Both the position numbers and the translations under genes were made by a program. The notes beneath the pieces are model-generated. The model did no database searches, had not been told where the DNA came from, and saw only the letters and a program-made list of their open reading frames with translations. Of a stretch of DNA of 64,000 nucleotides, positions 24,875-47,629 are shown one piece after another. Each line of letters opens with the position of its first letter. The stretch's first letter is position 1. Origin of the DNA: a virus. The DNA lies in the IMG/VR virus record IMGVR_UViG_3300024999_000080, positions 1 to 64,000 of that record. One strand, written 5' to 3'.

Positions 24875-25498
24875 ATGTTTATTAATAAAATTGGATATCT
24901 TCATTTAGAAAAAGGATTGAATTGTCAAGATTTTGGTTTTGAGAGTGACAAGCATAAATGTATAATGGACGGTTGTTCAGAAGGAAAACATAGCGAAGTT
25001 GGTGCTAAATTATTTGCACATATGTTTTCAAAAGGATTAGATCCAATTGAATGTTTTGAAAAGTTGTCTGGTATATTTCCTGATTACGAGGATATAAGAG
25101 ACCATATGTTATTTACTGTATTATTCGTTTCCCAAACTGATGAAGAATACATAGTTGATATTTGTGGTGATGGATACATAATTAAGCAAAAACTTGATGA
25201 TTCGATTGAGTATGAAAAAATAGGAGAAGGTAATGCTCCAGAATATTATGCTTATAATTTTGTTTCTTCAGATCGTTTGAATAAGTATAAAGATGGTGTT
25301 GAATTCAAACATCACCTACTATCTAAAAGCGAATATAAGGCCGTAGGAGTGGCATCTGATGGCTTAGATTACATTCTTAATAGTCCTTTTAAGGATGAGT
25401 TTGAAAAGCATTTAATAGGAAGAAAAGAATTTGCAATCCGAAGACTAATCAATCGAGAACATAAATATTTTAAGGATGATATTTCAATTGTAATTTGA
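24875..25498 (+). CDS. PP2C-family protein phosphatase
   Basis: NCQD, DGCSEGKHSEVGA, CGDG, ASDG, DDISI. Confidence 0.85.
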   Translation: MFINKIGYLHLEKGLNCQDFGFESDKHKCIMDGCSEGKHSEVGAKLFAHMFSKGLDPIECFEKLSGIFPDYEDIRDHMLFTVLFVSQTDEEYIVDICGDGYIIKQKLDDSIEYEKIGEGNAPEYYAYNFVSSDRLNKYKDGVEFKHHLLSKSEYKAVGVASDGLDYILNSPFKDEFEKHLIGRKEFAIRRLINREHKYFKDDISIVI

Positions 25499-25512
25499 TT
25501 GAGGTGAAAGTG

Positions 25513-27216
25513 ATGAATATAAGTGCTAAAATTCTAAAACAAACTCCATTAGCTGAAGGTGGAGAAGGTATTATATATGATTTAGGGGATAATGTTCTTA
25601 AGGTCTATAAAGATTCGGTTGATAAGCAAGAAAAATTAAAAAAGGTTAAATTGTTGATATCTAAATCTTTACCTTCAAATATTATCAAACCTATTGATAT
25701 TGCTTATGATTCACAGAAAAAGTTTATTGGTTATATTATGCCGAAAGCAGAAGGTGAAGACGTTAAGAAATTAGGCAATAAGAAATATGTTAAAGTAAAT
25801 AATATTAAAATCCAAGACATTAGTAAATTAGCATTAAAAATAAAAGAAACTCTCACAATTTTACATAATCAAAACATTCTTATCAGCGACTTAAATGATG
25901 GCAATATATTATTCACCAAGGATTTTGAACCATATTTTATTGATGTTGATAGTTGGTCTATTGATAATATTAATTGTACAGTTTGTATGGAAACATTTAA
26001 AGATCCTAAATTAGTTTCCAGTAATTTCACTAAAGATACTGATTCATTTTCATTTGCTGTGTTATTATTTAAGATGCTGACAAGACTTCATCCCTTCGGA
26101 GGAACAATGAATCCAGATATGGATATTATTCAAAGGATGAGTAAGGGCATATCAGTAATCGAAAATTCAAAAGTTATTGTTCCAAAGAATATTAATAAGT
26201 GGGAATTTATGTCTCCAAAATTACTTACGGATATGAGAAGTATTTTTGAAAAAGGAAAAAGGTTTTTAATAGATCAAAATTTGTTGGATTTTGCTTCAAA
26301 TTTGAAGTATTGTGATAAACATGAAGATTATTATTATAGCAAGTACAAAACGTGTCCTATTTGTGATGTAAGTGCTGTAATAATTCAAGCTCCTATACAA
26401 GTTGTTGGGAATGGATCTATTCCTTATATTGTTCTAATTGCTTCAAATGGTGTGAAAATGATATTAAATCTTGATACATTTATTGATGATAATGATTTTG
26501 TAATTCATAGCAGATCAAAGAAAAAAGTAGAATTAGTTAATGGTAATAGATATTATTTTTCTAATGATGGAGATATTGCTTTCACAGTTTCAAATATGGA
26601 TATTGGCGTTAGTAATCAAAAAGGAACATTTATATTTGAGAAAATTAATAAGAGTAATGTTGTCGTGAAGAATGATATTATTTACTATATTAATTCAAGT
26701 TGTAATCTTGTGGAATTGACTGTAGGTGATATTGGCAACTCATTAAGGGTAATTACTAAAACTTCTTTTAATTCATTTTTTGAAGTGTATGATAAAGACA
26801 ATTATCTAGTTTGTAATATTTATGATGGTTTTAAAATTGTCAACATTAGTGGATATAATTATCAGATTAATGACAATGATAAAATTGTTAATTATGGTAT
26901 ACACTTCGACACTATAAAGAATTTATGGTTATTTATTACTGAGGATGATAAAGGTAACTTTAAGACATTGATTTTTGATAAGAATAAAGTAGTTTACAGT
27001 AGCGATAGTATAAAGTATCAAACTGATCTAGGGAATTTATGTTTTAGTGGTGGGGTAATATTTAGCCCTAGTGATAAGGTTATTAGAGGATTTGGTTACG
27101 AGAAGAATGTTTATAAGGATTTTCCTTGTGATGTGGTTAATGATGGATCTAAGTTAATTAGAGATGGTAGCAAGTTTATTGTGATTAATGATAAAGAAGT
27201 TTATAGGTTGGGTTAA
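25513..27216 (+). CDS. Ser/Thr protein kinase with a Zn-ribbon and beta-rich C-terminus
   Basis: LAEGGEGIIY, VLKVY, SDLNDGNILF, FIDVDSW, RLHPF, CxxH..CxxC. Confidence 0.87.
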   Translation: MNISAKILKQTPLAEGGEGIIYDLGDNVLKVYKDSVDKQEKLKKVKLLISKSLPSNIIKPIDIAYDSQKKFIGYIMPKAEGEDVKKLGNKKYVKVNNIKIQDISKLALKIKETLTILHNQNILISDLNDGNILFTKDFEPYFIDVDSWSIDNINCTVCMETFKDPKLVSSNFTKDTDSFSFAVLLFKMLTRLHPFGGTMNPDMDIIQRMSKGISVIENSKVIVPKNINKWEFMSPKLLTDMRSIFEKGKRFLIDQNLLDFASNLKYCDKHEDYYYSKYKTCPICDVSAVIIQAPIQVVGNGSIPYIVLIASNGVKMILNLDTFIDDNDFVIHSRSKKKVELVNGNRYYFSNDGDIAFTVSNMDIGVSNQKGTFIFEKINKSNVVVKNDIIYYINSSCNLVELTVGDIGNSLRVITKTSFNSFFEVYDKDNYLVCNIYDGFKIVNISGYNYQINDNDKIVNYGIHFDTIKNLWLFITEDDKGNFKTLIFDKNKVVYSSDSIKYQTDLGNLCFSGGVIFSPSDKVIRGFGYEKNVYKDFPCDVVNDGSKLIRDGSKFIVINDKEVYRLG

Positions 27217-29233: not shown

Positions 29234-29357
29234 AGTTGGAAGAGAATTGGAGGGGTGGGGTTATAATTATAAAAATAAATTTTATAATTATGAATAGGAC
29301 AAAATGAAATTGTCTATAATATAATCACAAGGAAATAAAAAGGAGTGTGATTATATT

Positions 29358-29774
29358 ATGCAAAATGTAAGTGTAAGTGTAAGTGTAAGTGTAAATAAAG
29401 TTTCACAAGAGATAAAAAGAGGAGATATTTGGTTAGCAGAATTAGAAGGAAGTAAAGGTTCAGAAATGAAAATGGTACGCCCCGTTGTAATCATTCAAAA
29501 TAATTTAGGGAATAAATATAGCCCATGTTGCACTATAATTCCATTGACTAGTAAGGTTGGGAAACGATGGATGCCCACTCACACAACCCTACATAAGACG
29601 GTTTGCTTATCAACTTTGAGTATTGCTCTCGCAGAACAGGTTGCAACGATTTCAAAGGAACGATTGACAAAATTTATTGGAGTGGTCGAAAAGTCAGAAA
29701 TAGTTGCTATTGAAGATGCTATTATGATTCAGTTGGGAATCAAACCAAGAAATAATATTGCGTATGCAAATTAA
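29358..29774 (+). CDS. mazF: MazF/PemK endoribonuclease, no adjacent antitoxin
   Basis: KRGDIWLAEL, GSEMKMVRPVVIIQNN.GN..SP, PLTS, PTH, AEQV.TISKERL. Confidence 0.88.
   Translation: MQNVSVSVSVSVNKVSQEIKRGDIWLAELEGSKGSEMKMVRPVVIIQNNLGNKYSPCCTIIPLTSKVGKRWMPTHTTLHKTVCLSTLSIALAEQVATISKERLTKFIGVVEKSEIVAIEDAIMIQLGIKPRNNIAYAN
29367..29394 (+). repeat. (GTAAGT)4 in-frame microsatellite encoding VSVSVSVS
   Basis: Direct reading. Confidence 0.9.
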
Positions 29775-29820
29775 TAAGAGGGAGAGATAAAATTTAATTG
29801 AGTGAATATAATATTTTAAC

Positions 29821-31374
29821 TTGGCAAAGGAGAATTGCCGAGTGCTGTTAACAAAGACGCTAACAATGAAATGGAGTGCAAATAATAAGGTATGGTTTGA
29901 AAGTAAGGGATATACTTTTACTAAATGGAAAGATGAATTTGAGATTAAGGTGGAAGATTTATCTGATGGTTCTGGGGCATTAGTTGATGTCCAATGTGAC
30001 GGATGTGGAGAAATATTAACTAATATGAAATGGCAATCATATATAAGAAGTTCTAAGAAAGATGGTAAATATTATTGTAAAAAATGTTCTTGTAAATTAT
30101 TTGATGGTGAAAATCAGAGAAAAACTAAGTTAAAAAGTAGCAAATCCTTTTACGATTGGTGCTATGAAAATTTACCAAGAGCAATAGCAAATTATATATT
30201 ATCAAAATGGGATTATGCTTTAAATATCAATAAGAACGGCAATATAATAAGTCCTAAAGATGTTAGTTTTAGTTCTACAGGTTTTGACGGTAAAGGATAT
30301 TGGTTTAAATGCCTTAAATATCCTGAACATGGATCTGAACAGAAACGTATTAGTAATTTTGTTAGCGGAATGGGTTTAGGTAACGTTATTACTTGCATTC
30401 AATGTAACATTATTTCTATTACCCATCCACATTTAATAAAATATCTGGTAAATAAAGAAGATGCGAATAAATATTCTTTTGGTTCAAATGAAAAAATACC
30501 CATGAATTGTGTTAATTGTGGATATGAAAAAAAATTAAGTTTTAATAAATTAGTAAGTAGAGGTTTCCCTTGTCCAAGGTGTTCAGATGGTATAAGCTAT
30601 CCTGAAAAATTTCTATTTTCATTCTTAGAACAATTAAATTTATATTTTAACTTTCAATTAACAAAAACAACTTTCAAATGGTGTGGCAAATATAAATATG
30701 ACTTTTACATAGAAATAATTAATGGAATAGTTGAGGCAGGAGGTTTGCAACACTATGACGATACTAAAGGTAGAAATTGGGGAGCATCATTAGAAGAAAT
30801 ACAAGAAAATGATTTCGACAAGGAATGGATTGCTAGAATAAATAAAATTAAGAATTACATAATTTTAGATTGTAGATATTCTGATATGAAATGGATTAAG
30901 CAATCTATAATGAAGTCTAGGTTGCTTATATTAGGATTTAAAGAGGAAGATATCGATTGGCTAAAGTGTCATGAGGCGGGTTGTAATAGTTTGGTTAAAA
31001 TTTCCTGTGATCTATGGAATAATGGAATGAAAAATACATCACAGATAGCAGATATAATAAAGGTGCATAGGGCTACTATTGTAAACTACTTAAAACAAGG
31101 AGTTAAACTTGAATGGTGTGACTATGATCCTAAAATAGCGATGACTGGTAACTATAGTAGAAGTGTTATATGTATAACTACTAGGGAGATATTTAATTCA
31201 ATTGCTGAAGCAGGAAACGTTTATAAAACAGATTGTAGTAGTATATCAAAATGTAGTAAAAATAAAAAGAAATACTCAGGATTACATTCAGAAACGGGAG
31301 ATAAATTAAAATGGATGTATTTAGTAGATTATGAGAATATGGTTAAATATCAAAATAATAATAAACCTTCATAA
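29821..31374 (+). CDS. Zn-ribbon + PD-(D/E)XK/Vsr-like endonuclease + NUMOD1-like (homing-endonuclease-type) protein
   Basis: Multiple CxxC; SYPEKF; YDFYI...IVEAGGLQHY; C-terminal VICITTREIFNSIAEA. Confidence 0.7.
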   Translation: MAKENCRVLLTKTLTMKWSANNKVWFESKGYTFTKWKDEFEIKVEDLSDGSGALVDVQCDGCGEILTNMKWQSYIRSSKKDGKYYCKKCSCKLFDGENQRKTKLKSSKSFYDWCYENLPRAIANYILSKWDYALNINKNGNIISPKDVSFSSTGFDGKGYWFKCLKYPEHGSEQKRISNFVSGMGLGNVITCIQCNIISITHPHLIKYLVNKEDANKYSFGSNEKIPMNCVNCGYEKKLSFNKLVSRGFPCPRCSDGISYPEKFLFSFLEQLNLYFNFQLTKTTFKWCGKYKYDFYIEIINGIVEAGGLQHYDDTKGRNWGASLEEIQENDFDKEWIARINKIKNYIILDCRYSDMKWIKQSIMKSRLLILGFKEEDIDWLKCHEAGCNSLVKISCDLWNNGMKNTSQIADIIKVHRATIVNYLKQGVKLEWCDYDPKIAMTGNYSRSVICITTREIFNSIAEAGNVYKTDCSSISKCSKNKKKYSGLHSETGDKLKWMYLVDYENMVKYQNNNKPS

Positions 31375-31422
31375 AATATATAAGTAAATATAACTAAGAT
31401 AAAGGAGAGATAATATAAATAG

Positions 31423-32043
31423 ATGGTTGAAACATTAATATTCAGTATTTTGTGCCTAAAAACAAAATTATATTTAAAGCTAGGCAAATTCCAAATACAT
31501 AAAGAATCATATCTAGTTAAACCAATACTAAAACAATGGAGTATTTATCCGGTAATACTTATGTCATTAATATATTGTATTTTTCAATATATGATTTTAA
31601 ACCATGATTATAGTTTTATACCATATCAAAAGATATTTAAAGATGCCTTGATCATGTCATACATAATATTAGGAGTCGATATTTTATTTAGGAATAAAAT
31701 ATATAAACCATTTATATTTGCTTGTTATAGTTTATTAAGTGGTTGTGGACTGAACGCTATTGTAATGCATTTTAACAATAAAAAGATGCCAATTTTCCCG
31801 ACATTTACTTATTCGACTGGCTATACACAGTATGATATGATTATAAATTCTTCTAAATATGGAGATTTTCATGTTCTTGGAGATCATACAACAAAATTGA
31901 TATTTTTAGCTGATGTATTCGATGTCTGTGGGTTTTCAATATGGTCAATCGGGGATATTTTGGTCAGGGTATTTGCTTTTATGATGGTATATTATTCAGT
32001 TAAAGAGGTTAATAAAATACATAAGAATAAAATTGTAAATTAA
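31423..32043 (+). CDS. DUF5317-family membrane protein
   Basis: Hydrophobic; LNAIVMHFNNKKMP...TKLIFLAD...SIGDI pattern. Confidence 0.75.
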   Translation: MVETLIFSILCLKTKLYLKLGKFQIHKESYLVKPILKQWSIYPVILMSLIYCIFQYMILNHDYSFIPYQKIFKDALIMSYIILGVDILFRNKIYKPFIFACYSLLSGCGLNAIVMHFNNKKMPIFPTFTYSTGYTQYDMIINSSKYGDFHVLGDHTTKLIFLADVFDVCGFSIWSIGDILVRVFAFMMVYYSVKEVNKIHKNKIVN

Positions 32044-32056
32044 TAAATAAATATAC

Positions 32057-32085
32057 TTGCATTACATTCTTGCATATGGTATACT
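32057..32085 (+). promoter_or_regulatory. sigmaA promoter for receptor-agrD
   Basis: TTGCAT-N17-TATACT with TG extension. Confidence 0.6.
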
Positions 32086-32125
32086 TGTTTTAGGTTAAGA
32101 AATGAATAAGAAAGAGGTAATACAT

Positions 32126-32941
32126 ATGCAAGGTGTAACAAATGCTTTATTGAATACTATTTTGGTAAGCATCCCAGAGGAATCATTTATTGTAATTATG
32201 ACATTGGTTTTTTTAAGAAGATTTGATATGTTGGACATCAGAATGTGGAAACACAGTTTGAAATGGATCATGGTTCCAACCTTGCCCGTAGCAATAATGA
32301 TAAACGTGTTTAGATATATAGTAATAATACCAAAACCATTAATGTCTTTAGCTTCATTTATATTAATGACAATTTTAATAATATTTATGATAATAAAAAA
32401 TAGTGTTGTTTTTGATAAAAAGTTATTATTTAAGACAATAATGTTTACAATATTAAGTTTTGTTGTGGTTGGATTAATAGAATTATTATATTATCCTATT
32501 TCACTCTCCTTGTTACATAAACAGATGTCTTATTTTAATAATAATATCCTATACAATCTTTTATTAGCAATTCCTACAAGAGTATTACAAATATGTATTG
32601 TGGCATTTATCATAATGAGGAAAAACAATGATATTGAGATAAATTTATTCAACACAATTGTGAGAAACAAGTTTTTTACAAAAAGTTTTATAATGATGAT
32701 AACTATTATGTTATTTGTAATAATTTATATGGGGAAGTTGCTAATGTTTGATAATATATTAGTGGAATTACAAGTCATTGATCAATTGTTCATAGTTTTA
32801 ATTGTTATAGTAACACCAATAATTTTAATTACTTGGTTCCTAATGTTTGTTAATTATTTATTAACAAAGGAAAAACAAATACAGCAGACTTACGAAAATC
32901 TTGTTATGCAAGATGACGTAATGCTTGATGTAGAAGATTAA
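32126..32941 (+). CDS. Multi-TM protein resembling an AgrC-type sensor domain, lacking a histidine-kinase domain
   Basis: About 7 hydrophobic segments and a short acidic tail; no H-box/N/G boxes; directly upstream of agrD. Confidence 0.55.
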   Translation: MQGVTNALLNTILVSIPEESFIVIMTLVFLRRFDMLDIRMWKHSLKWIMVPTLPVAIMINVFRYIVIIPKPLMSLASFILMTILIIFMIIKNSVVFDKKLLFKTIMFTILSFVVVGLIELLYYPISLSLLHKQMSYFNNNILYNLLLAIPTRVLQICIVAFIIMRKNNDIEINLFNTIVRNKFFTKSFIMMITIMLFVIIYMGKLLMFDNILVELQVIDQLFIVLIVIVTPIILITWFLMFVNYLLTKEKQIQQTYENLVMQDDVMLDVED

Positions 32942-32961
32942 AGTGAAAGGAGGTGAAATTA

Positions 32962-33078
32962 ATGAAAAAATACGCTATCGTCGCTGGAATGGTTGCCCTG
33001 GCCGCTACAATGTTTACTAATGTTTTTGCTTCTTGGTTGGGTGCACATCAACCAAAGTCCCCTAATTGCATGAAATAA
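32962..33078 (+). CDS. agrD: AgrD-type cyclic lactone autoinducer precursor (38 aa, missed by the ORF track)
   Basis: Perfect RBS AAAGGAGGTGA; MKKYAIVAGMVALAATMFTNVFA-SWLGA-HQPKSPNCMK matches clostridial AgrD leader-[C/S]xxxx-HQPxxP. Confidence 0.88.
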   Translation: MKKYAIVAGMVALAATMFTNVFASWLGAHQPKSPNCMK

Positions 33079-33090
33079 TATTATCCTACA

Positions 33091-33120
33091 TATAGGGAGG
33101 GACTTCGGTTCTTCCCTATA
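33091..33120 (+). terminator. 13-bp hairpin with C(UUCG)G tetraloop after agrD
   Basis: TATAGGGAGGGAC-TTCG-GTTCTTCCCTATA. Confidence 0.75.
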
Positions 33121-33158
33121 ACCATAAAATAATTGTATAGTTAATATTTACATATTTG

Positions 33159-33188
33159 TTGACATTTTGCATATCTTTATAGTAAGAT
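33159..33188 (+). promoter_or_regulatory. sigmaA promoter for HTH-MazF + agrB
   Basis: TTGACA-N18-TAAGAT. Confidence 0.55.
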
Positions 33189-33252
33189 ATTAATAAGGAA
33201 ATAATAAAAAATTATAAATATCTTATTAGAGATGAAGAGGAGATGTGTTATT

Positions 33253-34035
33253 ATGTTAAACAAATTCTTTACTAAAAACACCAATACCGAGGAAAATACC
33301 AAAAAAGATTTCAAAAAATTAGCTAACTATGTAATTCATGCCAAAGGTCATAGGACGATCAATGGATTTGCAGCAGATATGAAAACCGACTCTGAATATC
33401 TAACTCTTGTTGTTAATGCAAGAATAAACTCTTATCCAGATATAAAATTTCTTAAAACCATCGCTGACAATTCTGATGGTAGAGTATCTTTAAAGGATTT
33501 AACATTGGCGTGTGGGTATTCAAATTACACAAATAATGATATGGAACAGATAAAAAATATTGAAGTCAGAAGAGGAACTTTTTGCTATGTTAGTTTGGGT
33601 GATGTCATAGATTCAGAGTATGGGGGAAATCGATTATGTTTAGTTATACAAAATGATGTAGGGAATCACTTCTCAAGCACTTCAATTATTTTACCTCTCA
33701 CTAGTAGAAAACGTAGTAAGCTTCCCACCCACGTTGAAGTTGGGCCTAAAAATTGCGGATTGCCCCAAGAATCAATTATTAGTTGTGAGCAAATTCGTTG
33801 TGTATCAAAAAGGAGACTTAGCCAAAACGGGATAGTTCAGAAGGTTTCAGAATGCCCTTCAGAAATTATGTTATTGGTTGAGGTTGCCATGCTGAAGGCA
33901 CAAGGGGTTATTCATCTTAAAATGAATGAACAAGAAGCAGTTCAATATCTAATGAATATGAACAAGCAAAAAACATATCAGTATCAAAATAATTATAATC
34001 GTAGTGCAAGTCAGCAGGTTGCCTTTGCACGATAA
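33253..34035 (+). CDS. Xre-HTH-MazF/PemK fusion protein
   Basis: N-terminal RTINGFAADM...YPDIKFLKTIA...LTLACGY (HTH-like); C-terminal RRG..., SEYGGNRLCLVIQNDVGN, PLTS, KLPTHV, CEQIRCVSKRRL. Confidence 0.85.
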   Translation: MLNKFFTKNTNTEENTKKDFKKLANYVIHAKGHRTINGFAADMKTDSEYLTLVVNARINSYPDIKFLKTIADNSDGRVSLKDLTLACGYSNYTNNDMEQIKNIEVRRGTFCYVSLGDVIDSEYGGNRLCLVIQNDVGNHFSSTSIILPLTSRKRSKLPTHVEVGPKNCGLPQESIISCEQIRCVSKRRLSQNGIVQKVSECPSEIMLLVEVAMLKAQGVIHLKMNEQEAVQYLMNMNKQKTYQYQNNYNRSASQQVAFAR

Positions 34036-34059
34036 AAGAAAGGAAGATTAAATAATTAA

Positions 34060-34683
34060 ATGAGTTTTATTGAAAATGTTTCAAATTATTCTGCTAGGTG
34101 GTTGGCATCAAAAGTACCTAATGATAAATATCCTACAGTAGAAGATCAAATTGAGGTTTTTACCTATGGTTTTATGGTTATATGGGGATTTATATTTAAG
34201 ATCATATTGATGGTATCATTAGCATATATCTTTAATATTATAATCCCTATTATAATATTAACATTGACTTTCAGTAGTTTAAGAATTATCGCAGGAGGAT
34301 ACCATTTAAAGACCTATAATCGCTGTATGATTATTAGTGCTTTGCAATTCATTGTATCAGCATTAATAATCAAACACACATATCAATATTGGCCTATCCA
34401 AAACATCTATTCTCTGCTATTCTTTTGTGTATTAACGACACTATATATAATCTTCAGATATATTCCAAGAGACACACCCAACAAACCCATTATAGACCCT
34501 TTACAGATTAAAAAGTTTAAACGATGGTCATTATACTACCTTATCGCATGGACAGTTGTAATGACCATCTTCCTACTGTTTAATGTACATATAATTGTAA
34601 TTGCAAGTTGTTTTGGGTTATTGTTGGAGCTTTTTAGTGTGGGTAGAATAGGGCAATCGATATACTCTAAGCTAGATTCATAA
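34060..34683 (+). CDS. agrB: Accessory gene regulator B (AIP-processing membrane peptidase)
   Basis: EVFTYG, LRIIAGGYHLKTYNRC (catalytic H/C), PRDTPNKPI. Confidence 0.92.
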   Translation: MSFIENVSNYSARWLASKVPNDKYPTVEDQIEVFTYGFMVIWGFIFKIILMVSLAYIFNIIIPIIILTLTFSSLRIIAGGYHLKTYNRCMIISALQFIVSALIIKHTYQYWPIQNIYSLLFFCVLTTLYIIFRYIPRDTPNKPIIDPLQIKKFKRWSLYYLIAWTVVMTIFLLFNVHIIVIASCFGLLLELFSVGRIGQSIYSKLDS

Positions 34684-34783
34684 TTAAGTTTACTTATATC
34701 ATTAAAAGGAGGTGATGTTTTATGTGAATTTAATAATATCAATAAAAAAATAATATTTAAATAGAAAGGACATTTATTGCAAA

Positions 34784-35512
34784 TTGGAAACATATAAAGA
34801 TTTAACTGGATTAGTATTTAATAATTGGACTGTTCTAGAATTATCGAACAGAACAAATAAGAAAGATGATAGATATTGGAAATGCCGTTGTAATTGCGAA
34901 TATAAAACAATTAAACATGTAGCAGAAAGGGCATTGTCTTTTGGCACATCAAGAAGTTGTGGTTGTTTACTAGGAAAAATACCATCTAAAAAAATTGCAA
35001 AGGTTAAACCTGATAAAATATTAAAACCTCCAAAAGACAAAATAGTTAAACCTAAAATCGTAAAACCTTTAAAAATTCTAAAGAAAAGAATTTATAAAGT
35101 AAAAATATCTGATAGTAAAGAAATTAAAATATCATACAACAAAAGAATAATGAGCATTTATAGCGGAATGAAACAAAGATGCTATAACCCTAAAGCTAAA
35201 GGTTTTAAATATTATGGGGGCAAAGGAGTTGTTATTTGTGATGAGTGGTTAAATGATAGAAAGTTATTTTATAATTGGGCAATAAACAATGGATATTCTG
35301 ATGAATTAACTATTGACAGAATAGAAAATGATGGGAATTATGAACCAGACAATTGCAGGTGGACTACTTGGGAAGAGCAAGCCAATAATAAATCTAATAC
35401 TGTATATTATAGATATGAAGGAGAAATTAAATCTTCATTGGATTGGTGCAAAGAAACTTGGTTAACTTTTGAAACTTTAAAGAACATATTTGATATACAT
35501 ATCCTGCATTAA
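34784..35512 (+). CDS. HNH homing endonuclease
   Basis: WKCRCNC, SCGC, MKQRCYNP, YGGKG, LTIDRIENDGNYEPDNCRW. Confidence 0.88.
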   Translation: METYKDLTGLVFNNWTVLELSNRTNKKDDRYWKCRCNCEYKTIKHVAERALSFGTSRSCGCLLGKIPSKKIAKVKPDKILKPPKDKIVKPKIVKPLKILKKRIYKVKISDSKEIKISYNKRIMSIYSGMKQRCYNPKAKGFKYYGGKGVVICDEWLNDRKLFYNWAINNGYSDELTIDRIENDGNYEPDNCRWTTWEEQANNKSNTVYYRYEGEIKSSLDWCKETWLTFETLKNIFDIHILH

Positions 35513-35538
35513 GAATAGGCGAACAATTTAGCACAAAA

Positions 35539-35555
35539 TGTCGAACATATGTACT
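35539..35555. promoter_or_regulatory. Overlapping Spo0A box (TGTCGAA) and LexA-like box (CGAAC-ATAT-GTACT)
   Basis: Matches TGNCGAA exactly and GAAC-N4-GTTC with one mismatch. Confidence 0.35.
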
Positions 35556-35685
35556 ATTTTTGTTATGATGTTTCTTGTATAGTAATTTTCCCTATGATAT
35601 AATATTATTAAGGAGGTATTAAGAGAGTCGAGGTGTTATTTGTAGAAATTACCATAAATTAAAATTAAAGGAGAAGTGAATTATA

Positions 35686-36042
35686 TTGAATTATTGTAAT
35701 ACTTCTAATGAACAATCCATATGGGTAATTAAAGACCAAGACGGTAACTTCGCTCACAGGAATAGCATTGGCAAGTCTGGAAAGAATACTTACCTATACA
35801 TATCTTTTAAAACATTTTCTCCTGAATGTAAGGGATATATAGATAAAGAAAGTGCTGAATCCGCTTTACTTGAGTTAAATAAAAGAAAGCATATCATGGG
35901 ATTGCACAATTCTTTTAATTTAGAATATAATATCTTAAGCGAAATGACTAAACTGCACAGGGAATTTCAAGGTGAGAACATGGTTTTATACGAGATGGCA
36001 AAATCTGATTGTTCAGATTTCCCAATATCAAAAGCGATGTAA
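35686..36042 (+). CDS. Hypothetical protein
   Basis: RBS AAGGAG, TTG start; followed by hairpin 36062-36098. Confidence 0.6.
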   Translation: MNYCNTSNEQSIWVIKDQDGNFAHRNSIGKSGKNTYLYISFKTFSPECKGYIDKESAESALLELNKRKHIMGLHNSFNLEYNILSEMTKLHREFQGENMVLYEMAKSDCSDFPISKAM

Positions 36043-36118
36043 TTATGCACATATAATTATAATGAACTGCACTGGTCGCGTCGATAGGTGTGGTTCATAT
36101 AAAAATAAGTATAATTTC

Positions 36119-36147
36119 TTGACATTAGAGTAATAATTGTATATAAT
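36119..36147 (+). promoter_or_regulatory. Perfect sigmaA promoter for the DGQHR/recombinase-like operon
   Basis: TTGACA-N17-TATAAT. Confidence 0.85.
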
Positions 36148-36185
36148 GATGTTAATATTATTTTAATGTGAAGGGGTGATATTTA

Positions 36186-37544
36186 ATGCTTAAAGAAAAA
36201 TCAGTTGAATTGATCCAAGAATTAAATCCATTAATCGTTAAATATTCTAGCAATGACAAAGTAAGGAAAATAATTTTAGATGAGTTCTCTAAGAGGAATA
36301 TGAGTGGTCGTTTAGCACTTTCTATCCTTAATGAGAAAAGGGCATTATCAACATTAGACATTGATGAAGGTAAAGATTTAGTATTATTATTTGTTTTTAC
36401 AAATGCAATGTATGATGCATTAAATTTTAAAACAGATGATGATTCTCCAATTTTAGGAGATATCGATGAAGTATTAAGTATTGTTCCAAGCAATTTCTTT
36501 AATGAAATAGAAATGCAGAATATGGAAAATTATAAAGAGGAGAAAAGAGTAGAGACGAAAAAGCAATATGTGTTTCATAATATGCTTCGTGCGGCTGATG
36601 GGCATTATAAAGGTTTAGATCATGCTAAACATCTTGCAGAAATATATGCAGAAAATGAAATTATTTATAATTTTAAGAATCAACGTGATCCGCATATTGA
36701 TATTTATGGAGAAAAGAGAATTCAACTTGATAAAAACAAAGTAGAACGAATAATGAATAGACTGCTTGAAGGAATTCAATTTTCAGATGATATCAAATTA
36801 AATATACTTCATGATGGTGAAGATGAATTATATTTTAATGAAAAAACTGGAGATTTAACCTATATTTCTGGAAGTATTAATATATTTGATGGTTATCATA
36901 GACTCATAGCTAATTCTTTAGCTATCGCAAAAAATGCAGAATTAGAGTTTAACTGGGGGTTAGTAATTACTAATTTCAGTGAGAATAAAACATTAGAATT
37001 TATGACCCAAGTTAATGAGCAAAAACCCATGAAAAAAGAGCATATAAAGAACCTAGATTCTTCAAGATTGGGAAATGTTGTAGTAGATGCAATTAGAGAC
37101 ATTGGTACTAGTGAATTTGGTCAGAATATTAAAGAATCAGATGCAGAATTGAAGTTTTCTGGTATGACAAAAAAGTCTACTTTAGCTATTAGTATAGAAG
37201 AATGTTATAAGGAAAAACTAACCAATAGACTTCAAGCAAAGCCCATAGCAAAGCATATTGCTAACGTTATGGACTATATCATTGGATTGAATGTTGAAGA
37301 GTTTATAGAGCGTCCTGACGCTTCTCAGACATATATCAACCACAAGAATATGTTCTCTGGATATGTTGCTTTATCAGAAAGATTATATGATGTAAAGAAT
37401 TGGGAAGACTTATTAGAAGAAATTCTTAATCAAATTGATTTCAGTGTTAAAAATCCTTTCTGGAAAGATATTGGAATATCAGATTCCGATATGAAAAAAT
37501 CTACCAGAAATAACCTATATAAATTCTTTCAGAAATTAGTTTGA
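36186..37544 (+). CDS. DGQHR/DndB (ParB-Srx-like) domain protein, SPbeta YopQ-like
   Basis: NQRD, INIFDGYHRL, QVNEQKPM; position upstream of a recombinase-fold gene. Confidence 0.6.
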   Translation: MLKEKSVELIQELNPLIVKYSSNDKVRKIILDEFSKRNMSGRLALSILNEKRALSTLDIDEGKDLVLLFVFTNAMYDALNFKTDDDSPILGDIDEVLSIVPSNFFNEIEMQNMENYKEEKRVETKKQYVFHNMLRAADGHYKGLDHAKHLAEIYAENEIIYNFKNQRDPHIDIYGEKRIQLDKNKVERIMNRLLEGIQFSDDIKLNILHDGEDELYFNEKTGDLTYISGSINIFDGYHRLIANSLAIAKNAELEFNWGLVITNFSENKTLEFMTQVNEQKPMKKEHIKNLDSSRLGNVVVDAIRDIGTSEFGQNIKESDAELKFSGMTKKSTLAISIEECYKEKLTNRLQAKPIAKHIANVMDYIIGLNVEEFIERPDASQTYINHKNMFSGYVALSERLYDVKNWEDLLEEILNQIDFSVKNPFWKDIGISDSDMKKSTRNNLYKFFQKLV

Positions 37545-37572
37545 TTAATATATTTAATAAGGGGTGTTTAAT

Positions 37573-38619
37573 ATGTCCATCAATGAAGTTAACGAAGAAT
37601 TGCAAGATGAAGAGGTAGTATTTGAGGTTGATTCAGAAGTTAAAAAGGAGTTTCTAGAAAATCAATTAAAATCTACTAGAAGTTTCTACACTTATGTCCT
37701 CAAAAGAGCAGATGAATTTGAAACACAGGTTGGCAAGAAAATTTATGACTTCAATATTGAAGATCGTGATGAAATGCTAACTGTTCAATTCAAGAATAAG
37801 AACAAATGGACGTTTCAATCTGCTTTATCTCCTTTAAAAACTTATGTTGACTTCTGTATATCTAAAAGTTTAGTTAGACATAATGAGAACAGATTTATGA
37901 CCATTCTTCCTGCTGATTATAAGGATTATATTAATGACCAAGCACAATGTAATTCTTATATTCCTTTATCTAAATCTAGAGAACTTCAAAAAAGGTTGAA
38001 AAATGATCAAGATAAATTGATTATAGAGTTATCTAGTTTGTCTGTCAGAGGAAGAACTGAAAAGGGGAATACTCTTGAAGAACTCGTAAATTTAAAGGTT
38101 AAAGATATTAAATGGAAGACTAAAGAATTATATCTTACTAAAAACAATGGTGAACAAAGATATATTGAAACTGATGATTACACATTAGGTTTACTCAAAC
38201 GAGTTATAAATCAAACTTTCTATGTCTCTAATAATGGGTTAAAATCTAAGAAAAATGAGGATGGTATTTATGAAGAGACTAATAGAGGTAGGGCTATAAG
38301 TCCGACTGAATATGTATTTAGAGTTCCCGGAAAGAACAGATTAGGTAAAGTAGATTATCAATTTTTCACTAGCAGAATTCAAAGGATGCAAGGTTGGTTA
38401 GAAGCTCCTTATTTGACTAGTTCGAATTTATACTTCTCAGCGATTTTAGACTATGCAAAAGAGAAGATGGATGAAAAAAAGGCAAAAGGAGAAAAATGTG
38501 AATTAACCAGAGAAGACTATATTCAAATTAATGAGCGATTTGAGTTTGGTGAAAATGGAGAAAAATATGTATTCAAAACCAGAGATTTAGTTAAAATGTA
38601 TTTTGGTAATGGAGAGTAA
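37573..38619 (+). CDS. Tyrosine-recombinase-fold protein with degenerate catalytic box II; YopR/MrpR-like master repressor candidate
   Basis: SAM-like N-terminus (LKTYVDFC); RG....LEELVNLKVKDI box I; TSSNLYFS replaces HxLRH. Confidence 0.65.
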   Translation: MSINEVNEELQDEEVVFEVDSEVKKEFLENQLKSTRSFYTYVLKRADEFETQVGKKIYDFNIEDRDEMLTVQFKNKNKWTFQSALSPLKTYVDFCISKSLVRHNENRFMTILPADYKDYINDQAQCNSYIPLSKSRELQKRLKNDQDKLIIELSSLSVRGRTEKGNTLEELVNLKVKDIKWKTKELYLTKNNGEQRYIETDDYTLGLLKRVINQTFYVSNNGLKSKKNEDGIYEETNRGRAISPTEYVFRVPGKNRLGKVDYQFFTSRIQRMQGWLEAPYLTSSNLYFSAILDYAKEKMDEKKAKGEKCELTREDYIQINERFEFGENGEKYVFKTRDLVKMYFGNGE

Positions 38620-38624
38620 ATATT

Positions 38625-39029
38625 ATGAAAAATACACTTTTAGAAATGTGGAAAAAATACAATTTACTTCTCTCTTTTAAAAATGAGATGAATAAACGCG
38701 GATATCCATCAAAGAGTCTGTATAGTATTGAAACACAAATGAGTGTTTTGATGCTATTGATTGAAATCGAAAGTATAAATGTTTTAGAAACCTTACTAAA
38801 AGGCAAAACTTATTTCAGATTATTAAAGAAAATTAACAGGGGATTTGAGTATTTATATGAAATTGTAGAATCTCCAGAGGACTGGGTATTAAACAAAATT
38901 GAAAATGATGTTGATGCATGGATTGATTCAAATGTATTAATTTTTACATGCAAAAGTTCTACTGCTGTATTTAGTAAGATATCACGCAAAAGTGATGGAG
39001 CAAAATATATTGATGGAAAATTTCAATAG
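38625..39029 (+). CDS. Hypothetical protein
   Basis: ORF in an operon with the recombinase-like gene. Confidence 0.6.
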   Translation: MKNTLLEMWKKYNLLLSFKNEMNKRGYPSKSLYSIETQMSVLMLLIEIESINVLETLLKGKTYFRLLKKINRGFEYLYEIVESPEDWVLNKIENDVDAWIDSNVLIFTCKSSTAVFSKISRKSDGAKYIDGKFQ

Positions 39030-39041
39030 GAGGTGTGCTTT

Positions 39042-39449
39042 ATGAATGTAGGGGAAAAAATTAGTCTATACAAAGAAAGATTAAATTTTAGAGATTATCA
39101 AGAATTTGGCAGGGCAGTTGGTATCAGTGGCAATTGGATAAATGAAACATCTAAGAAATCAGAAATTAAACAAATCAACGATTTGGGTTATTTAGTTAAA
39201 TTATGTGGATTTTTAGGCATCACGATAGATGAATTTTTAAGAGATGACATAATTGAAACAGATGAATCAATTGAACTTAATATTATTGATGCAAATACGG
39301 AAGATATTGGCATTTTGCTCAATAATATGATATTATTACTAGGGAAGCAGGGTATAAAAATAGATGGAGCGTTAATGAATGATAAAAGCAAAGAGATTTG
39401 TATAGATAGTCTTGCGGTAGTAAAAACACTAGTTAAACAGCATTTATAA
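39042..39449 (+). CDS. Xre-family HTH regulator
   Basis: VGEKISLYKERL...QEFGRAVGIS...LVKLCGFLGITIDEFL. Confidence 0.75.
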   Translation: MNVGEKISLYKERLNFRDYQEFGRAVGISGNWINETSKKSEIKQINDLGYLVKLCGFLGITIDEFLRDDIIETDESIELNIIDANTEDIGILLNNMILLLGKQGIKIDGALMNDKSKEICIDSLAVVKTLVKQHL

Positions 39450-39465
39450 ATGGAGGTTAATAATT

Positions 39466-40326
39466 ATGGTTCGAAAGAATTATAGGTCTGTAGACACCTA
39501 TGAGATGGATGATATAGAAGTTTACTCACTAGTCAAAAATGGCAGTCTAAGAGCATTCCCTTCGGGGTTTTGGGAGGGAGTTGCAGGTCTTCAAACTGCT
39601 AAGAAAATTCTAAAATATGTTTTCGAAAATCTTTTAAATTGGTCTATTGAAGATATCAAGGCTAAAACCACTAGAGAGTTGTTTGAAGAATATAAATTAG
39701 TTGGAATGGTTAGCACTACATTCGATGGTAGCATGTATATCGCCATTGGCGAAACTTATCCTGAACTTAAAGAATGGGCAGATGAATTATATCAAACAAA
39801 TGAACATGCTGATTTTGTTCATAGGAGATATTCAGATGATGAATTAATTGGGATTATTCAAGAAAAAGCAGAAGATTTAAAGAGAATTCCAAAAGGTGTT
39901 GACATGAAAGCACCTAGTAGTGGAATTTATAATCGGAGATTTGGTTCATGGGAGAAATCTTTGATCAAGGCAGGTTTAATCAAAGATATCTATAAAAACG
40001 TTGATTTTGAAAAACATTCGAAGGAATCAGTAATTTCTAATTTAAAAGAATTATTTGCAAGTAAAGAAAGAGTATTAGACAAGAAAGAAATACTTTCTAT
40101 TTATCCAGAAGGATTAATCAAAGAATATTTTGGAACTTATAATAACCTTGAGAAAGTTATTGTAAGTGAGTATACTAAAAAGGATCTTATCAAAATATTA
40201 AAAAAGAAGAAAGAAAAATTAGGTAGAATTCCAAACAACAAAGATATGAAGTTTCCAATGGCTATTGTGTTTATAGATAAGTTTGGATCTTGGCAGGAGG
40301 CGATAGATAAATTGGAGAAAACTTAA
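39466..40326 (+). CDS. DUF4046-like protein with homing-endonuclease-associated repeats
   Basis: FPSGFW; repeated L.RIP...DMK.P......FGSW motif. Confidence 0.6.
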   Translation: MVRKNYRSVDTYEMDDIEVYSLVKNGSLRAFPSGFWEGVAGLQTAKKILKYVFENLLNWSIEDIKAKTTRELFEEYKLVGMVSTTFDGSMYIAIGETYPELKEWADELYQTNEHADFVHRRYSDDELIGIIQEKAEDLKRIPKGVDMKAPSSGIYNRRFGSWEKSLIKAGLIKDIYKNVDFEKHSKESVISNLKELFASKERVLDKKEILSIYPEGLIKEYFGTYNNLEKVIVSEYTKKDLIKILKKKKEKLGRIPNNKDMKFPMAIVFIDKFGSWQEAIDKLEKT

Positions 40327-46870: not shown

Positions 46871-47629
46871 ATGAACGATGTACAAATTTATGAAAATACT
46901 GAATTAGGTTTCAAAGTTAGAACAAAATTAAATGAAGATAAGAGCATTAGTATGAATGCGGAAGATACTGCAATAGGTTTTGGATGGTCAAGAGAGAAAA
47001 ATGGTAAACTTTATGTAACATGGGACAGAATGAATGGATATATTAGTGATTTTGGTTTTCCACAGAAGTGTGGAAAGGATGATTACATACCAGAAAGCTT
47101 ATTTTACCTTCTTGGGATGAAAGCAAGTAGTGATTCTGCTGTAAATTATCAGAAGTGGTTAGCTATTGATGTGATTCCATCTATTCGTAAACACGGAGCA
47201 TTTATTGCAGATGGTGAAAATGTAGATGTTAATTTTATTTTAAATGAATTAAGATTCAGTATGAAAAGAACCATCAAAACTTTTACTAATGCAAATATAC
47301 AAGATGTTAAAAAGTTATATGAAGAATTTAGAGAGTATATAGACGTTGAATATAAATATAAAACTGATGAGAGGGTTGCTCGTTATAAAAGTGTCGAGAA
47401 GGGGTTAGATGGTTTACATGACAGATTAATTGCGGAGGATACCAGTAATGTTGGCGATTGCTATAATGTTAGAAAACTTAAAGAGAAGGTTATTATTGAT
47501 AGAACCACCTTAGAGAAAAGAATTAGTGGAGGCGAGAAAGCAGGAATGACCAGAGAAATAAGTAGGTTGAATGATGAAATTGAAAACATAAACTCCTCAA
47601 GTCAATACAGTGATTTAGAAAACGATTAA
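46871..47629 (+). CDS. BRO-N/antirepressor-like protein
   Basis: YIPESLFYLL..KA.....YQKWLAIDVIPSIRKHGAF. Confidence 0.8.
   Translation: MNDVQIYENTELGFKVRTKLNEDKSISMNAEDTAIGFGWSREKNGKLYVTWDRMNGYISDFGFPQKCGKDDYIPESLFYLLGMKASSDSAVNYQKWLAIDVIPSIRKHGAFIADGENVDVNFILNELRFSMKRTIKTFTNANIQDVKKLYEEFREYIDVEYKYKTDERVARYKSVEKGLDGLHDRLIAEDTSNVGDCYNVRKLKEKVIIDRTTLEKRISGGEKAGMTREISRLNDEIENINSSSQYSDLEND

Follow-up and report, generated by a model that had tools for sequence, protein, structure and literature searches.

A kinase-less Agr-type peptide cassette with its own MazF genes beside SPbeta-type repressor genes: a candidate phage communication switch

The virus record IMGVR_UViG_3300024999_000080 carries, at positions 29,358 to 39,449, an Agr-type peptide cassette that lacks a kinase, is accompanied by two MazF genes of the phage's own and lies upstream of SPbeta-type repressor genes. 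It is possible, at somewhat less than an even chance, that this cassette is coupled to its MazFs and feeds the choice between lytic growth and dormancy. The anatomy of the cassette is firm, and we infer the link to the lysis-lysogeny decision and the MazF output. To our knowledge, no phage-encoded peptide system other than arbitrium, which uses one receptor class (RRNPP), has been shown to set this decision. Judged from its genes, the cassette described here makes a strong candidate for a switch of a second kind by which phages would communicate. "The window" denotes the whole stretch of 64,000 nucleotides that was analysed, the first 64 kb of a 76.9-kb record.

The genes of the region follow one another on the + strand in the order mazF1, homing endonuclease, DUF5317, TM279, agrD, a fusion of an Xre-type helix-turn-helix domain to MazF (Xre-HTH::MazF), agrB, a mobile open reading frame (ORF), orf118, YopQ-like, MrpR-like, orf134 and Xre-like. 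An earlier note on this DNA had placed all of these genes where the ORF list and family searches now put them, and the profile and structure searches that it proposed matched AgrB, AgrD (TIGR04223), PemK, MrpR_N_CB and YopQ. Two of its labels fared less well than the others, which hold. The ORF that it called "HNH" (34784..35512) has no significant family match and is HNH-like by eye only, and the gene that it called "Xre" (39033..39449) has one weak PHROG match (phrog_8, 0.0013) and none in Pfam, with 46–93% identity in relatives. For comparison, ten loci were collected with the MrpR-like and AgrB proteins as queries, and 22 further IMG/VR loci are those with a full-length HTH::MazF, found with a profile of the fusion protein; counts out of 23 phage loci refer to the window plus these 22. 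Related phage loci are numbered L002–L011 and bacterial genome contigs L014–L036.

The processing enzyme and its substrate are both recognizable. The agrB gene (34060..34683) encodes a membrane cysteine peptidase/cyclase that matches PF04647 over residues 26–193 (121.5 bits against a cut-off of 23, 3.4e-35). Its catalytic pattern GG.H-x6-C is invariant in 12 aligned AgrBs, eight from phages and four from bacteria, and the catalytic His and Cys, seven apart, correspond to H77 and C84 of Staphylococcus aureus AgrB. The agrD gene (32962..33078) probably starts at ATG 32962, which is preceded by the ribosome-binding site AAAGGAGGTGA, and encodes a precursor of 38 residues; its match to NCBIfam TIGR04223, a short model, is marginal (19.9 bits against a cut-off of 19, E 5.9e-4, residues 7–38 of 38). 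The predicted ring is SWLGA, closed as a Ser-lactone and followed by the tail HQPKSPNC. An AgrD-type ORF made up of a leader, an [S/C]xxxx ring and an [HNYF]Q[PS]..P tail is found in 23 of 23 loci, with conserved flanks and a variable ring, and the tail pattern common to all 23 AgrDs is [HNYF]Q[PS]..P.C. At least 20 distinct rings are predicted among them (for example SWLFS, SMFFS, CFAVW, CRFWF and SAFLW), with Ser commoner than Cys as the first residue. A signalling peptide is likely to be made by the cassette.

The earlier note had also claimed that the phage brings its own MazF genes. Two are present, with Pfam PemK matches of 6.1e-26 for mazF1 and 4.7e-21 for the fusion (91.2 and 75.5 bits against the PF02452 cut-off of 23.1), and the latter lies between agrD and agrB. 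Both proteins can be aligned with Bacillus subtilis EndoA and with S. aureus MazF, and in both the catalytic Arg and Thr/Ser, equivalent to EndoA R25 and T48, are retained. In the EndoA alignment the motifs are GG.R and (L/I)T(S/A), and R and T/S are kept in 14 of 14 phage MazF sequences. The stand-alone mazF1 (29358..29774) matches S. aureus MazF in the PDB at 1.4e-22, and its R25/T48 equivalents are retained in six orthologues. It is preceded, in AT-rich DNA, by a promoter-like site AGGACA-18-TATAAT (29296..29325) that matches the consensus at 10 of 12 positions. No ORF lies between this site and mazF1, which has no antitoxin gene next to it, and the genes upstream vary between relatives. 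At its 5′ end (29367–29396) mazF1 contains four perfect copies and one imperfect copy of GTAAGT, encoding VSVSVSVSV and absent from relatives; because the hexamer is in frame, slippage there would change the length and not the frame. The two MazFs also have a common C-terminal tail, ..NN[IV]AYA[N] in MazF1 (29740–29774) and ..QQVA[FY]A[R] in the fusion (34000–34035), which is kept in most relatives (L002–L011) and could be an ssrA-type degron or a common docking motif.

The fusion protein (33232..34035) has 267 residues as annotated. Its probable start is seven codons later, at 33253, giving the 260 residues of the database gene calls, and 58 clusters of about 260 residues exist. The PemK domain spans residues 113–217 and is followed by a C-terminal helix and tail. 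The AlphaFold2 (AF2) model, with a predicted local distance difference test (pLDDT) score of 77, has a five-helix N-domain at residues 18–88. Its MazF domain superposes on 4MZM with Z 18.6 and a root-mean-square deviation of 1.9 over 114 residues, and after the MazF matches the best ones, to the N-domain, are all XRE-family HTH proteins (Z 8–9.8). No Pfam HTH family matches the N-domain, and the XRE assignment is made because of these fold matches and because the domain's distant bacterial relatives are HTH_3 proteins; the fold differs from that of MazE.

This architecture raises the question of whether the fusion acts chiefly on RNA or on DNA. It could be mainly a peptide-responsive transcription factor, whose Xre domain binds the promoters of the cassette or of the repressor genes and whose MazF fold serves as a dimerisation or ligand (co-repressor) module or as a binder of host MazE, and the confidently modelled XRE fold, the HTH_3 kinship and the conserved promoters on either side all speak for it. 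So does the arrangement of bacterial loci discussed below, where an Xre gene comes right after agrD in 14 of 23 cases and the fusion would hold the place of that regulator. Homology of the N-domain to the bacterial regulator, Xre117, was considered and rejected at an hhalign probability of 3.8%, and the whole family conserves the RNA-binding segments as well as the catalytic Arg and Thr/Ser. We regard a mainly transcriptional role as quite improbable; it is compatible with RNase activity and hence does not exclude it.

The genes downstream of the cassette tie it to SPbeta. The first (36186..37544) encodes a 452-residue protein of the DndB/DGQHR type (phrog_5732, 2.7e-60) with the motif DGYHR, which aligns with SPbeta YopQ at 2e-26 over 351 residues and matches DndB at 1.5e-6, just below the cut-off. 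The second, 20 bp further on (37564..38619), encodes a repressor candidate with a recombinase fold like that of MrpR, YopR and SroF. It matches MrpR_N_CB (48.4 bits against a cut-off of 27, 1.5e-12) and phrog_5830 (2.6e-42), and aligns pairwise with the core-binding N-domain of YopR/MrpR at 4e-7. The Phage_integrase family finds only a remnant (0.0087 over 50 residues), consistent with a degenerate catalytic domain. MrpR itself has a recombinase fold without recombinase activity and is a repressor, and yopMNOPQR encodes a binder of MazE (PMC10516654); in SPbeta-like phages the repressor is SroF (YopR; bioRxiv 10.1101/2025.11.27.690993).

The genes of SPbeta run aimR (yopK), aimP (yopL), yopM-N-O-P, yopQ and yopR. 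Given this order and the homology to YopQ and YopR, the cassette occupies the place of arbitrium and yopM–P. Pairwise alignments and the SPbeta map thus bear out the note's claim that the cassette lies directly upstream of yopQ/yopR homologues, as aimR-aimP does in SPbeta. Its further claim, that the cassette replaces arbitrium, stands as regards gene content and position; the replacement itself is a well-founded hypothesis and not a finding. The link between MazF and lysogeny in phi3T, which the note had given as background, agrees with the report that MazF activity promotes lysogeny in that phage (PMC10769878).

Transcription signals suggest how the region is divided. Right after agrD lies a GC-rich hairpin (33091..33120, about −19 kcal/mol), and a hairpin is found there in eight of eight phages compared, with differing stem sequences and with T runs after three of them; it is likely a terminator or processing site. 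A promoter-like site, TTGACA-18-TAAGAT (33159..33188), follows it upstream of HTH::MazF, and a TTGACAT −35 box is at the same place in seven of the eight phages. The YopQ-like gene is preceded by a sigma-70-type promoter TTGACA-17-TATAAT (36119..36147) that matches the consensus at 12 of 12 positions, and strong −35/−10 pairs occur upstream of this gene in eight phages. These conserved hairpin and promoter positions suggest three units, namely DUF5317-TM279-agrD, HTH::MazF-agrB (with a transmembrane (TM) paralogue where present) and the repressor operon. An inverted repeat at 36066–36098 (..CACTGGTCGCGTCGATAGGTGTGG..), just ahead of the perfect promoter, is kept in L002 and could be the terminator of the preceding unit or an operator.

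A survey of synteny, which the earlier note had named as a test capable of refuting its proposal, places the cassette beside YopQ/MrpR-like genes in every relative found, and the proposal survives it. Among the ten loci the cassette adjoins the pair in all, at protein identities of 25–90% and in two gene orders, with agrB either before DUF5317 or after HTH::MazF. Among the 22 loci with a full-length fusion, agrD lies just upstream of the fusion gene in all; TM279 and AgrB are present in 21, the exception being cut by a contig end; and the YopQ-like gene is downstream in 22, with the MrpR-like gene next wherever the contig continues. The survey was not blind to other contexts, since it also recovered 57 loci that have a MazF homologue alone, without the rest of the cassette.

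Two mosaics show what moves together. The DNA of L002 is 82–88% identical to the window on both flanks, and between 28.2 and 35.5 kb it is unalignable except for part of the TM gene. Its cassette proteins are 26–39% identical to those of the window, and its MrpR-like, orf134 and Xre-like proteins 87–98%. In L010 it is the cassette DNA that is similar (76% identical), and the YopQ/MrpR allele is only 24–32% identical. Judged by these mosaics, both MazFs travel with the peptide genes, and the cassette is one exchangeable unit that always lies beside a repressor block. It behaves as a "pherotype" unit, being the most divergent stretch between otherwise similar phages, with a ring that differs in nearly every phage.

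Conserved neighbourhood might still be architecture only. The region could be an island for host manipulation or maintenance without any decision circuit, in which the agr genes disturb host quorum sensing (e.g. sporulation), as proposed for the Clostridioides difficile phage phiCDHM1, and the antitoxin-less MazFs serve host shut-off, plasmid-prophage addiction or the exclusion of rival phages. Phage agr genes with no known link to lysogeny do exist (PMC3901668), an agr peptide governs sporulation in Ruminiclostridium (PMC8251862), and MazF homologues without agr genes are common in other large phages, as the 57 loci above illustrate. Cassette and repressor alleles also reassort independently, and the MrpR-like protein has relatives in plasmid-prophage-type C. 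botulinum phages. It is hard to square with such an island that in 23 of 23 loci HTH::MazF stands between agrD and agrB/TM279 despite identities down to 25–30% and rearranged order, that phages exchange the complete set, both MazFs included, as a single block, that the motif avoidance described below is specific to the repressor genes, and that the cassette lies in an early/regulatory region, whereas the agr locus of phiCDHM1 adjoins lysis genes. Both parts of this explanation taken together are, in our judgement, unlikely.

The note's statement that there is neither an AgrC-type kinase nor AgrA is borne out in the window's record and in five relatives of 146–230 kb, three of them CheckV 100% complete: in these six records neither the AgrC-type HATPase_c_5 (PF14501) nor the AgrA-type LytTR (PF04397) gives a match at E <= 1. 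As a control, five bacterial genomes yielded one to five AgrC-type HATPase_c_5 kinases each.

The membrane protein TM279 (32102..32941) has no kinase domain; its 279 residues are modelled by AF2 (pLDDT 85) as all-helical, with seven long helices. It belongs to no family in Pfam, PHROG or NCBIfam. Foldseek finds nothing in the PDB at E <= 0.001, and the best Z of a wide VIA-align search, 7.3, is in the range usual for helical bundles; no fold was assigned. A word-based search returned 45 relatives, all of about 270 residues, and a profile search over 1.84 billion representatives returned 230, the best 150 of which run from fragments up to 326 residues, none of them kinase-sized. A second population of about 300–320 residues includes proteins of Ruminiclostridium cellobioparum. 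Conservation is highest in TM1, in cytoplasmic loop 1 and in the acidic tail at the C-terminus, and it has no inside/outside asymmetry (0.64 vs 0.68). The residues that never vary are a Pro-Glu within TM1, an Asp within the first cytoplasmic loop and a Pro within TM7. Comparison with AgrC-type sensor domains gives hmmsearch E values of 0.01–0.05 (a set of 21 proteins) and, for 15 clostridial N-domains, hhalign probabilities of 5–43%; a protein atlas gave no more than a lead at 0.89. In most relatives a second paralogue of TM279 is encoded after HTH::MazF/agrB and ahead of the repressor block, where the window has its mobile ORF.

DUF5317 (31423..32043, Pfam 5.5e-19), also a membrane protein, is always encoded directly upstream of TM279. 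Of the 22 surveyed loci 20 have it, and one of those without it is cut by a contig end; it was not found in bacterial agr-TM loci. In one bacterial genome the neighbours of a DUF5317 homologue are a Trp-repressor-like gene and secA.

Bacterial homologues place the TM279 family among agr genes. In at least 12 of 23 bacterial loci the gene right after agrB encodes a TM279 homologue, an AgrD-type ORF (e.g. ..KPACFWGLHQPRVP..) comes after the TM gene in five of the six loci in which small ORFs were read, and a 117-residue HTH_3 (Xre) gene on the opposite strand follows in 14 of 23. Such agrB-TM315-agrD modules occur in R. cellobioparum, R. hungatei and many metagenome-assembled genomes (MAGs) of Bacillota (L014–L036), with no adjacent kinase, and the open-access papers and preprints that were searched contain no description of them. 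Because these homologues sit between agrB and agrD, the family is by gene context a genuine agr partner, in bacteria also without an adjacent kinase.

A genuine partner may take part in making the signal or in reading it. The wiring would differ from that of a sensor if TM279 and/or DUF5317 were AgrB's biosynthetic partner, acting in leader removal or export (cf. staphylococcal MroQ and SpsB), with the sensor elsewhere, such as an AgrC-type kinase of the host. The bacterial TM gene does lie inside the biosynthetic pair, in the order agrB-TM-agrD, and the same bacterial genomes hold their one to five kinases elsewhere. The strong conservation of TM1, with its invariant intramembrane Pro-Glu, would suit a site of catalysis or transport better than a binding pocket whose ligand is hypervariable, and maturation of AgrD requires a second, N-terminal cleavage (PMC9388083). 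Yet TM279 lacks CPBP/Abi and signal-peptidase motifs as well as any invariant His or Ser, at least 20 rings among sister phages would be unexpected for a peptide aimed at host kinases, and two paralogues in most relatives suggest more than one role. On balance we consider this arrangement doubtful.

The bolder possibility is that TM279 is a direct receptor of the cyclic peptide and gates the activity or location of Xre-HTH::MazF by contact, which would make a phosphorylation-free, pherotype-specific lysis-lysogeny channel unrelated to arbitrium. The acidic cytoplasmic tail of TM279 may then act, for example, like a membrane-anchored MazE, and the bacterial agrB-TM-agrD-Xre modules would be the chromosomal counterpart. 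Three runs of complex prediction for TM279 with HTH::MazF gave 0.50, 0.00 and 0.00, which speaks neither for nor against such a contact. This direct version, too, we hold to be unlikely.

UACAU is the cleavage site of B. subtilis and S. aureus MazF. When counts of this motif are compared with expectations from synonymous-codon shuffles, with the site assumed from these two enzymes and possibly not that of the phage enzymes, it is scarce in the repressor genes. Pooled over eight phages, the YopQ-like genes have 7 sites against 13.4 expected and the MrpR-like genes 2 against 8.2, together 9 against 21.7 (z = −3.1), and UACAU is the most depleted of 30 pentamers of the same composition in these genes. 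It is not depleted over the window as a whole (90 observed, 81 expected), and it is at or above expectation in the DUF5317, TM279, agrB and MazF genes. The depletion fits with a MazF activity that spares the repressor operon. On the DUF5317-TM279-agrD unit (31423–33078) the hexamer UACAUA is somewhat enriched, with 5 occurrences where codon shuffling predicts 2.7; if the phage MazFs cut UACAUA, the signal-production transcript would itself be a target.

The following mechanism would connect these parts. AgrB would cut the HQPKSPNC tail off AgrD and close the S-W-L-G-A serine lactone, as its family membership and intact catalytic residues lead one to expect, and the peptide would be released. 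The peptide would accumulate as infections proceed and would be sensed without phosphotransfer, the best sensor candidate being TM279, possibly with DUF5317. The output would be MazF activity, above all that of Xre-HTH::MazF expressed from its own promoter after the agrD hairpin. UACAU-bearing transcripts would be cut, the UACAU-avoiding YopQ/MrpR-like messages would be spared and the cell would tilt to repression, a step that draws on the motif depletion and on the published role of MazF in phi3T.

Several points weigh against this mechanism. The repressor block of the window alone has 1 UACAU site against 2.9 expected, which is not significant; the eight phages are related, so that the effective sample is smaller than eight and does not amount to eight independent events; and the test relies on a site that may not be that of the phage MazFs. 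TM279 is not demonstrably AgrC-like by sequence, has no PDB fold match and has its top conserved polar residues in TM1, and a role in maturation or export is as likely for it as one as receptor. Cassette and repressor alleles recombine freely and therefore give no sign of co-adaptation. A search of 399 sampled Clostridia genomes yielded no prophage copy, no large serine recombinase turned up, and short true tyrosine recombinases are present in three relatives only. Temperance is therefore read from the repressor and anti-repressor homologues alone, and is plausible on that basis. The phage family itself is known from sequence alone.

The record is linear, with a CheckV completeness of 44%, and the window has a GC content of 26–31%, with almost all long ORFs on the + strand. 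The stretch is present in three DNA runs from a groundwater metagenome of one study, and no RNA runs containing it are listed. The whole region has no DNA match among 50,697 deposited phages, and tblastn searches of the same phages with AgrB, TM279 and the HTH N-domain gave no match, a negative of limited sensitivity because phiCDHM1's own AgrB went undetected as well. The phages with this cassette derive from metagenomes of low-GC anaerobes and form a family of large, uncultured SPbeta-like phages. The hints of hosts are a MAG labelled Clostridium sp. and a 166-kb contig binned as a groundwater spirochaete.

Mobile elements are frequent in and around the cassette. The homing-endonuclease-like ORF at 29821..31374 (phrog_4538, 3.9e-53; also phrog_9084, phrog_559 and phrog_12131) is elsewhere or absent in relatives, and homologues of the mobile ORF at 34784..35512 are at other positions in L010 and L003. 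Insertions resembling homing endonucleases thus occur at varied points, namely these two in the window, 14403–15905 in L004, 6691–8217 in L005 and 6473–7060 in L010, which shows that mobile elements intrude often without loss of cassette genes. Of the small genes in the region, orf118 (35686..36042) is kept with the window's allele of the repressor block (40–74% identity in L002–L005 and L011) and orf134 (38625..39029) lies downstream of the repressor gene (54–98% identity in relatives); neither has a family match.

Outside the region, a 573-residue protein with a eukaryotic-type kinase domain (25495–27216, Pkinase 1.2e-10) is similar to kinases associated with defence (PADLOC mad6, PD-T4-6); its counterpart in L008, a relative of 230 kb, is 87% identical, and the gene lies outside the cassette in other relatives. 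No PADLOC defence-system model matched any cassette protein. Positions 39466–40326 encode two homing-endonuclease-associated repeats (HNH_repeat, 7e-28) and DUF4046, found at 77–92% identity right after the repressor block of relatives. An Ant-type anti-repressor homologue (46871–47629; several PHROGs, down to 4e-18) is consistent with a temperate lifestyle, and an NAD-dependent DNA ligase (3e-170) is encoded at 48439–50442.

If the cassette does serve the lysis-lysogeny decision, phages would have reached the same strategy twice, once with an extracellular cyclic lactone and once with an imported linear peptide. Agr signalling would then have a pathway that works without a histidine kinase and without AgrA, and a phage would itself supply the MazF that biases the decision, which phi3T takes from its host. 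The rings of sister phages, at least 20 of them, would lend themselves to testing how specific the signals are and whether viruses cross-talk. Clostridia themselves may, as the chromosomal agrB-TM-agrD-Xre modules suggest, operate by the same kinase-less logic. Keyword searches of open-access papers and preprints found no kinase-less agr cassette with MazFs beside an SPbeta-type repressor.

Among known systems, canonical agrBDCA of S. aureus and clostridia has the same AgrB His and Cys and an AgrD with a leader, a five-residue ring and an acidic/proline tail, and its ring is likewise hypervariable with co-diverging partners. It differs in that the complete phage relatives have no AgrC kinase and no AgrA/LytTR, and in that the output genes here are RNases and an Xre HTH. 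The agr3 locus of phiCDHM1, ordered agrC-agrB-agrD, is also a phage agrB and agrD without a response regulator, but it has a 453-residue AgrC with a HATPase domain and lies beside an endolysin gene (PMC3901668), whereas the cassette here has no kinase, another seven-TM family and two MazFs, and lies beside repressor genes. The chromosomal agrB-TM315-agrD(-Xre) modules are similar in AgrB (33–43% identity), the TM protein (about 25%), the HQP..P tail of AgrD and the lack of an adjacent kinase. Unlike TM279, however, the bacterial TM protein carries about 50 additional residues as a helical tail in the cytoplasm; the partner is a stand-alone 117-residue HTH_3 protein on the opposite strand; and there is no DUF5317, MazF or repressor block within 6 kb. 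Compared with MazF/EndoA of B. subtilis (4MDX/1NE8) and S. aureus (4MZM), the phage proteins have the same fold (Z 18.6), about 37% identity and the Arg and Thr, but they come without a mazE gene, one of the two is a fusion with an XRE domain at the N-terminus and a helix at the C-terminus, and both share the ..VAYA-type tails.

A close parallel is arbitrium. In both cases the phage genes of a peptide system directly precede homologues of yopQ and yopR/mrpR (here also in 22 of 22 further loci) and share their strand, a hairpin stands between the peptide gene and a downstream unit under control of its own, MazF is involved (PMC10769878, PMC10516654) and many peptide variants exist among related phages. 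In contrast, the cassette proteins have no RRNPP, TPR or AimR-like family match, the peptide gene is of the AgrD type, and no homologues of AimX, YopM/N or YosL were identified. The MazFs are encoded by the phage here and by the host in phi3T and SPbeta, and the source is metagenomes of low-GC anaerobes instead of Bacillus. The expected signal is a cyclic (thio)lactone made by AgrB that would act from outside the cell, whereas that of arbitrium is a linear peptide that is imported.

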